Shown here: piece by piece, positions 41,636 to 41,710 of the stretch
Position numbering within the stretch: position 1 is the first letter of the stretch
How the letters are laid out: every line of letters begins with the position of its first letter
Virus record (IMG/VR): IMGVR_UViG_3300021400_000949
Location: 1-64,000 of that record
Reading direction: 5' to 3' (one strand)
DNA length: 64,000 bases
Source: a virus
Taxonomy: Duplodnaviria; Caudoviricetes
The notes under the pieces: model-generated
Database searches by the model: none
The model's input: the letters and a program-made list of their open reading frames with translations, nothing else
Told to the model about the DNA's origin: nothing
Made by a program: the position numbers and the translations under genes

Positions 41636-41710
41636 CGGGGATTTGGGTAACAGCTAGCTCATCTGACTCTAAATCAGAAGGCCCCGGGGCGGCACCGGGA
41701 TCCCCCGCCA
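41636..41710 (+). tRNA. Amber suppressor tRNA, anticodon CUA (probably Gln-accepting)
   Basis: Cloverleaf: acceptor GGGGAT/ATCCCC with a C1-C72 mismatch, D stem GGGT/GCTC, anticodon stem TCTGA/TCAGA with loop CT-CTA-AA (CTA at 41669-41671), T stem CCCGG/CCGGG, G73, encoded CCA. Confidence 0.88.

Follow-up and report, generated by a model that had tools for sequence, protein, structure and literature searches.

A hidden amber-suppressor tRNA gene of probable glutamine type with an alternative elbow in a TAG-recoded phage

A CUA tRNA gene among replication genes

We analyzed positions 1 to 64,000 of the IMG/VR virus record IMGVR_UViG_3300021400_000949 (Duplodnaviria; Caudoviricetes), a 79.9-kb phage contig with a CheckV completeness of 67%; this 64-kb stretch is referred to here as the window. 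At 41636–41710 (+) it carries a 75-nt transfer RNA (tRNA) gene with the anticodon CUA and an encoded CCA end, recognizable from the sequence itself and by ARAGORN, Rfam and a covariance model (CM R2, below). The gene lies within a 181-nt gap between two co-directional genes, in a TAG-poor block of replication and nucleotide-metabolism genes. We put at roughly 0.8 the probability that it is a functional phage amber-suppressor tRNA gene of the glutamine type, a reading drawn from sequence comparison.

The tRNA forms a 7/4/5/5 cloverleaf. Its acceptor stem joins CGGGGAU (41636–41642) to AUCCCCC in the 3′ segment 41700–41710, which continues with the discriminator G73 (41707) and CCA (41708–41710); C1 faces C72 (41706) unpaired, above six pairs that begin with G2-C71 and G3-C70. 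U8 and U9 lead into the D stem (GGGU/GCUC, with G·U pairs at 11:24 and 13:22). The D loop, AACAGCUA (41649–41656), reads A14, A15, C16, A in the place of G18, G19, C, U and A21, and therefore holds a single G and no GG. The anticodon arm is ordinary, with a 5-bp stem (UCUGA/UCAGA) and the loop CUCUAAA (41667–41673; anticodon at 41669–41671), and its 7-nt loop with U33 and a purine, A37, is that of an RF00005 cloverleaf. A 4-nt variable loop (AGGC) precedes the T stem (CCCGG/CCGGG) and the T loop GGCGGCA (41688–41694; G54 G55 C56 G57 G58 C59 A60), closed by G53-C61. The universal elbow bases G18, T54, pseudouridine 55 (Psi55) and A58 are thus absent, and the T loop keeps only C56 and R57; U8, A14, A21 and G53-C61 are present. 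The loops, the C1-C72 mismatch, the four intact stems and the encoded CCA are exactly as the initial annotation of this DNA had described them. The gene has a G+C content of 62.7%, compared to 32.9% for the genome. An initiator tRNA was considered and rejected, as the anticodon stem lacks the three G-C pairs.

Standard tRNA finders overlook the gene, as had been suspected. ARAGORN with default settings reports no tRNA anywhere in the window, and an Rfam scan of the window at the gathering threshold with default filters gives no tRNA match. With thresholds lowered to 90% (-ps90), ARAGORN returns exactly 41636–41710 with the anticodon cta and an identical cloverleaf. A sensitive Rfam search with RF00005 also finds the gene, which is the sole match to the tRNA model in the 79.9-kb record, and our own scan of the record finds no other CUA cloverleaf. 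We built two covariance models, R1 from the window tRNA alone and R2 from 13 tRNAs of homologous design; R2 scores the window tRNA at 79.6 bits.

TAG recoding and glutamine identity

The phage in which this tRNA gene resides uses TAG as a sense codon. Reading TAG as sense lifts the fraction of the sequence covered by open reading frames (ORFs) of 200 aa or more from 0.42 to 0.85, and ORFs of 2220, 1989 and 1087 codons emerge with 45, 48 and 18 in-frame TAG codons, respectively; the first of these, a late ORF at 50244–56906 (−), is an example of a client gene. The record holds 211 in-frame TAG codons in ORFs of at least 300 aa. The claim of a CUA tRNA in a TAG-recoded phage thus holds: the anticodon is confirmed, and the long ORFs need TAG as sense.

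The amino acid was assessed by masking the TAG codons of 11 recoded genes as X, aligning the products to relatives with tblastn and counting the residue opposite each X. Glutamine was the most frequent residue (124 of about 420), followed by aspartate (46) and lysine (34), so that D, K and E come next. Within the RuvC-like gene (43476–44210, +; seven in-frame TAG codons), three TAG codons stand at positions occupied by glutamine in 65–88% of homologues (25/35, 22/34 and 30/34). The RuvC genes of five relatives contain 3–10 in-frame TAG codons each and no other stop, which indicates that the whole phage family is recoded. These alignments support the conclusion that TAG is glutamine in the late genes of this phage, in keeping with recoded phages of this kind, which read TAG as glutamine according to PMC10607447 and PMC9523058.

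The tRNA itself resembles a glutamine tRNA. A search of 50 related phage records with R1 gave as its best match a tRNA-Gln(UUG) with canonical loops (L175:1501–1575, in the genome G016). The acceptor stem of that tRNA, UGGGGAU/AUCCCCA-G-CCA, equals that of the window tRNA except at 1:72, sharing GGGGAU/AUCCCC at 2–7, G73 and CCA, and the two tRNAs also have G10, U35 and A37 in common. Its D loop, AACGGCAA, can be matched to AACAGCUA position by position in an AAC-G-C-A register. The shared acceptor stem, G73, CCA and D-loop register imply that the window tRNA is a glutamine tRNA by descent or design. It differs in its CUA anticodon (A36 for G36), in A38 for U38 and C1·C72 for U1-A72, and in the elbow, where A replaces G18 and the T loop is GGCGGCA instead of UUCGAUU. 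The bacterial glutamine identity set comprises G73, U1-A72, G2-C71, G3-C70, G10, U34, U35, G36, A37 and U38 (PMC9976931). When compared to Table 1 of that paper, the window tRNA retains G73, G2-C71, G3-C70, G10, U35 and A37, and replaces U1-A72, U34, G36 and U38 with C1·C72, C34, A36 and A38; C34 and A36 follow from the amber anticodon. Hence, the glutamine-type identity proposed earlier from G2-C71, G3-C70, G73 and U35 is borne out by these bases, by the acceptor stem of tRNA-Gln(UUG) and by the alignment of TAG with glutamine.

ARAGORN labels the gene a pyrrolysine tRNA (tRNA-Pyl), a label it gives to every CUA tRNA. tRNA-Pyl has a CUA anticodon and lacks both G18G19 and the T-Psi-C sequence, features that the window tRNA shares. 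However, the anatomy differs: the anticodon stem has 5 bp in the window tRNA against 6 bp in tRNA-Pyl, the acceptor and D stems are separated by two bases (U8 U9) against one, and the D and variable loops measure 8 and 4 nt against about 5 and 3 nt. Since TAG aligns with glutamine and the acceptor stem is that of tRNA-Gln, we give a pyrrolysine-type tRNA next to no weight. More generally, tRNA-Pyl and mitochondrial tRNAs have altered stem lengths or shrunken or lost loops, whereas the window tRNA keeps standard stems (7/4/5/5) and loops of 8 nt (D) and 7 nt (T), in which specific bases are substituted and co-vary (A18 with G55; see below). What it has in common with tRNA-Pyl, which likewise reads UAG, and with animal mitochondrial tRNAs (reviewed in PMC7609411) is the absence of the universal elbow bases in a tRNA that, in the present case too, probably works.

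Relatives, the elbow and the open 1:72 position

The same loops recur in other tRNAs. We defined a module by the D loop AACAGCUA, the T loop GGCRGCA, a standard cloverleaf, U8, G53-C61 and a 4-nt variable loop, all of which the window tRNA has. Six distinct CUA tRNAs share both loops (those of the window and of loci L199, L200, L201, L277 and L280), and their stems have diverged with compensating changes. L199 and L201 come from IMG/VR; L277 and L280 come from metagenomes, where patterns fixing the two loops and the anticodon loop gave eight matches, all of them perfect cloverleaves with exactly 6 of 7 acceptor pairs each. One of the six, from the complete genome G003, has the same D loop, the T loop GGCAGCA, U1·U72, G73 and CCA, all four of its stems being different. 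A pattern that left the anticodon free returned 16 matches from IMG/VR, 12 perfect cloverleaves and four chance matches. Of the 32 pattern matches in genomes of bacteria and archaea, just four are cloverleaves, and two of these lie in dense tRNA arrays of phage or mobile type.

Nine of the tRNAs with module loops have sense anticodons: UUG (L202), UGU (L203 and L210), UAU (L206), UCC (L208, L211, L213 and L214) and UUC (L212). They share with the window tRNA the D loop, the GGCRGCA T loop, U8, A14, A21, G53-C61, the 4-nt variable loop and the length of 75 nt; they differ in their anticodons, in a 1:72 position that is always paired, and in that several lie beside canonical tRNA genes. Such canonical genes adjoin, within a few to about 40 nt, at least the module tRNAs of L203, L206, L210 and L211 and the CUA tRNA of L200; the tRNA at L210:2399–2473 is flanked by tRNA-Gly and tRNA-Arg. 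An alignment of 13 sequences pairs in 96.7% of cells, compared to 54.8% when shuffled and about 40% in slid controls, and both partners have changed in 20 of 21 pairs, G53-C61 being invariant. As judged from these alignments, the elbow is a recurrent phage tRNA design spanning several amino acids and not a product of decay. We found no description of the A18/G55 elbow or of the AACAGCUA/GGCRGCA module in the literature searched, the coverage of which is incomplete, so that this is no proof of novelty.

The module also occurs, with anticodons CUC and UCC, in a deltaproteobacterial metagenome-assembled genome (L250, on a 4-Mb contig) and in one of Prosthecobacter (L275), in arrays of up to 19 tRNA genes within about 4 kb. 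These are probably prophage or mobile tRNA arrays.

The initial annotation had proposed that A18-G55 and G19-C56 form a compensated alternative elbow, and co-variation supports this proposal. Relaxed ARAGORN was run over 1.28 Mb of fetched loci, and 315 distinct tRNAs, mostly ordinary neighbors in arrays, were kept. A D loop containing GG is combined with UC at T-loop positions 55–56 in 240 of these, and a D loop with AG and no GG is combined with GC in 27; the crossed combinations, AG with UC and GG with GC, number four each (association of AG for GG with G55 for U55, Fisher p = 5e-29). The four tRNAs with GG and GC all have AGG, a sequence that fits A18 G19 G20. The module pattern is present in just 3 of the 27 AG/GC tRNAs. 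The other 24 comprise many loops (for example AACAGUA/UGCAAUU, AAUAGAUA/UGCAACU, AACAGAA/AGCGUCA and AAAAGUA/CGCGAUA) and about 15 anticodons; thus the 18:55 association was not built in by the search patterns. Neither C56 nor the G that precedes position 20 varies, implying that the elbow keeps its flat outer face, G19-C56, while the 54:58 combination occurs as U:A, A:U, G:G, C:A or A:A among tRNAs with G55. In this elbow, A18·G55 would replace G18·Psi55 and G54/G58 would replace T54·A58, with G19-C56 and G53-C61 retained. Together with the compensating stems, the D- and T-loop variants of related phages show compensatory rather than random changes. The use of different, co-varying bases in the elbow also explains why default ARAGORN and Rfam are blind to such tRNAs: among 14 module tRNAs, default ARAGORN detects none and Rfam at the gathering threshold two, neither of them a CUA tRNA.

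A further loop variant was seen in eight tRNAs from arrays of related phages (loci L083–L243), which combine a T loop UCCGANU (C55 for U55) with a normal D-loop GG.

The two loops could alternatively be joined in a functional tRNA by a 3-bp helix, in which G-C-U of the D loop pairs antiparallel with R57-G58-C59 of the T loop (G19-C59, C20-G58 and U20a-R57). AACAGCUA and GGCRGCA are complementary at all three pairs; R57, the one position at which the T loop varies (A or G), lies opposite U and would form A-U or G·U; and in the combination AAAAGUUA/GGCAGUA none of the three is lost, the pairs being G·U, U·G and U-A. However, AACUAGGA/GGCAGCA retains one of the three and ACUAGCUA/GGCAGAA two, and the D loops AGCAGCUA and GAGCAGCUAA meet the T loops UGCGAGU and UGCAAUU with no complementarity. 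Position 20 pairs with 58 in about half of the class tRNAs with A58 and with U58, which amounts to no signal, whereas the 18:55 rule holds nearly throughout. The helix is therefore the weaker model and a minority reading, which we consider unlikely, and we retain the A18·G55 elbow.

Two complete genomes bear on whether such tRNAs are the decoders of TAG. G003 (139 kb) and G051 (143 kb), both with terminal repeats, are TAG-recoded: reading TAG as sense raises their coverage from 0.37 to 0.73 and from 0.38 to 0.70, and their long ORFs contain 272 and 239 in-frame TAG codons, respectively. In both, our own scan gave no credible CUA cloverleaf other than the alternative-elbow tRNA, and default ARAGORN finds no CUA tRNA, so that routine annotation probably calls these genomes suppressor-less. 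Other relatives use other CUA tRNAs. G004 (L294:10573–10644, +) has one with a canonical elbow, a tRNA-Gln acceptor stem (UGGGGUA/UACCCCA) and U1-A72. The complete 120-kb genome G005 (L163:1910–1997, −) has an 88-nt CUA tRNA with a long variable arm, canonical loops and U1·U72, which brings the types of amber suppressor in this single phage family to three. Closely related phages thus interchange canonical and alternative-elbow suppressors. The decoder role assigned earlier to the window tRNA accordingly carries a caveat: it is the sole CUA cloverleaf of its record, yet that record is incomplete and some relatives rely on other CUA tRNAs. G016 (L297–L306; 179.6 kb, CheckV 100%) is recoded as well, its RuvC gene containing five in-frame TAG codons, and ARAGORN with default or relaxed settings, R1, R2 and our own scan found no CUA cloverleaf in it; the hidden-decoder problem therefore exceeds this class of tRNA. 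Recoded phages lacking suppressor genes have been described previously (PMC10607447).

Phage suppressor tRNAs are known from phages that use code 15 (PMC10607447; PMC9523058). The window phage resembles crAss-like, Lak, Garnet/Amethyst-type and phAss-1 phages (Borges et al., bioRxiv 10.1101/2021.08.26.457843; PMC10607447; PMC9523058) in a phage-encoded CUA tRNA located among early TAG-poor genes, in late, structural and lysis genes rich in in-frame TAG for glutamine, and in the lack of a phage synthetase, such that charging by the host is presumed. The published suppressors were found with tRNAscan-SE, whereas the window tRNA is missed by default ARAGORN and by the Rfam gathering scan, and unlike them it lacks G18, T54, Psi55 and A58; the suppressor of G004 has the canonical form.

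In addition to their loops, the suppressors have an open acceptor end. All six alternative-elbow CUA tRNAs carry a pyrimidine-pyrimidine mismatch at 1:72: three have U·U (L200, L201 and L277), two C·C (the window tRNA and L280) and one U·C (L199). By contrast, the nine sense tRNAs of the module all pair these positions, as G-C, U-A or G·U. Within the alignment of 13 sequences, 1:72 is open in the four CUA tRNAs alone. When the tRNAs of G005 and G004 are included, 1:72 is open in seven of eight distinct CUA tRNAs and a G-C pair in none. That the bases vary while the mismatch persists argues for selection, and to judge from these sequences the open 1:72 position is a trait specific to the suppressor members.

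Glutaminyl-tRNA synthetase (GlnRS) has to separate bases 1 and 72. An end that is already open may resemble the weak U1-A72 pair in this respect; the unpaired 1:72 would plausibly open the acceptor end for GlnRS in advance and could offset the lost contact to G36. The synthetase would presumably come from the host, given that neither a Glx-tRNA synthetase nor a release factor is encoded in the window record (G000) or in G003 and G051. The closest cultured homologues of the phage DnaE belong to Bacillus SPbeta-like phages (37% identity), and the host may on this account be a species of Bacillota. Bacillus forms Gln-tRNA by the indirect route through GluRS and GatCAB, and many Bacillota lack GlnRS. 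In such a host a working CUA tRNA might be charged with another amino acid, be it glutamate, by a non-discriminating GluRS with no subsequent amidation, or lysine, tryptophan or tyrosine, which certain amber suppressors used in the laboratory insert, and TAG would then be ambiguous or mean something other than glutamine. Amidotransferases rely on U1-A72 (PMC9976931), which is missing here along with G36 and U38; this fits glutamate charging, and it also lends some basis to the earlier argument that C1-C72 speaks against the GatCAB route. D, K and E are the next most frequent residues opposite TAG. Nevertheless, glutamine is by far the modal residue there and dominates at conserved sites, the window tRNA shares its acceptor stem, G73 and G10 with the tRNA-Gln of the phage family, and published recoded phages of this kind use glutamine; charging with a different amino acid is thus improbable, at odds of around one in ten.

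The preferred reading would operate as follows. The tRNA would be transcribed along with the surrounding TAG-poor block, processed by host enzymes and charged by a host synthetase, most likely with glutamine; it would then decode hundreds of in-frame TAG codons in virion, lysis and nuclease genes.

A number of observations weigh against this reading. Folding of the single sequence is uninformative (z = −0.20), with the cloverleaf at −25.3 kcal/mol lying 1.7 kcal/mol above the minimum free energy of −27.0 kcal/mol. The sensitive Rfam search yields a marginal 30.4 bits against a cut-off of 29. The identity elements U1-A72, G36 and U38 are lost. With 67% of the genome in hand and 10–29 tRNAs in relatives, a second, canonical suppressor or a tRNA array is possible. 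The same type of CUA tRNA occurs in only 1 of 50 related records, a patchy distribution, and in two relatives (L122 and L120) the 216-aa and 71-aa genes that flank the tRNA gene lie 7–13 nt apart with no tRNA between them. Finally, the identity of the loops in the 19 cloverleaves fetched by pattern follows from the construction of the patterns, and the loci behind the 18:55 table are not a random sample.

Some of these points would also suit a decaying or non-decoding relic, such as a pseudogene, an integration-site remnant, a decoy or a GC-rich hairpin at a transcript end, in which case the true decoder would be encoded in the missing third of the genome. In its favor are the marginal Rfam score, the blindness of default finders to the gene, the incomplete genome, the lack of a tRNA at the syntenic place in relatives and the absence of G18, T54, Psi55 and A58. 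On the other hand, six distinct CUA versions keep all stems by compensatory changes together with both loops, sense tRNAs built to this design adjoin canonical tRNA genes, and the design provides the only CUA tRNA of two complete recoded genomes; furthermore, no T-run follows the T-arm hairpin on the plus strand. We therefore regard a relic as very improbable and retain the functional suppressor.

Taken jointly, the elbow and the acceptor end suggest a more tentative proposal, to which we give somewhat less than even odds: phages may have a distinct tRNA elbow (A18·G55, G54/G58 and G19-C56) that could not receive 5-methyluridine 54 (m5U54) or Psi55, would function independently of these host modifications and hides its tRNAs, amber suppressors included, from standard finders, with the suppressors keeping 1:72 open for glutamine charging by the host in spite of their altered anticodon. 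Escape from host factors would be another conceivable benefit of such an elbow. If so, some of the TAG-recoded phage genomes that reportedly have no suppressor tRNA, roughly 60% of the total, would owe this to hidden tRNAs, and a covariance model of the class could measure how many of these "missing" suppressors are recoverable. Stop-codon recoding in phages is established, and the window tRNA would be a concrete, conserved example of a hidden suppressor. As the 18:55 co-variation concerns near-universal tRNA bases, it offers a natural test bed for elbow requirements, and tRNAs with an alternative elbow and an open 1:72 position may interest designers of orthogonal or modification-independent suppressor tRNAs.

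Genomic context and signs of insertion

The tRNA gene stands in the order NrdD (38268–40187), NrdG-like activase (40367–40852), a 216-aa gene (40908–41558, +), the tRNA, a 71-aa gene (41740–41955, +), dUTPase (41968–42900), a weak NUMOD4 (HNH-type) gene and RuvC. The 216-aa gene is TAG-free and has no Pfam match ("ThyX-like" in an earlier reading), and the 71-aa gene is conserved in relatives, with 82% identity to L122. About 80 IMG/VR contigs of 110–180 kb share the order DnaE, NrdD, NrdG, 216-aa gene, 71-aa gene, dUTPase and RuvC, with NrdD identities of 67–87%. Blastn-short and relaxed ARAGORN on 80 syntenic NrdD loci found no homologue of the tRNA beside NrdD. A search with the 216-aa protein gave loci at most 61% identical, the first 40 of which yielded no CUA tRNA with ARAGORN, and blastn of 40800–42900 against cultured phages gave no match. 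When the anticodon arm was used for an exact-match scan, nothing emerged beyond L081, a canonical suppressor unrelated to this one, and L082, a match by chance.

Because the flanking genes of relatives adjoin with no tRNA between them, the tRNA gene is best described as an insertion in this phage. The spacer upstream of it (41559–41635, +) is unique to this phage. A 17-nt direct repeat with 82% identity, at 41534–41550 in the 3′ end of the 216-aa gene and at 41610–41626, precedes the tRNA and may be a scar of its insertion. A promoter and terminator scan of the plus strand found nothing, including no sigma-70-like promoter; the sole "terminator" is the T arm on the wrong strand.

Elsewhere in the window, an ARAGORN candidate at 25518–25594 is AT-rich, has poor stems and no Rfam tRNA match, and was treated as a false positive. 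The 476-nt gap at 25144–25619, between a topoisomerase II subunit gene and the next ORF, has as its only Rfam match a sub-threshold CRISPR repeat. A PHROGs search with ten large proteins matched only the endolysin and two topoisomerase II subunits. Seven TAG-rich proteins of 386–2220 aa, encoded at 2143–10354 (−) and 45259–63999 (−), were without a match among the PHROGs; in this phage lineage, the virion module has essentially no annotation.

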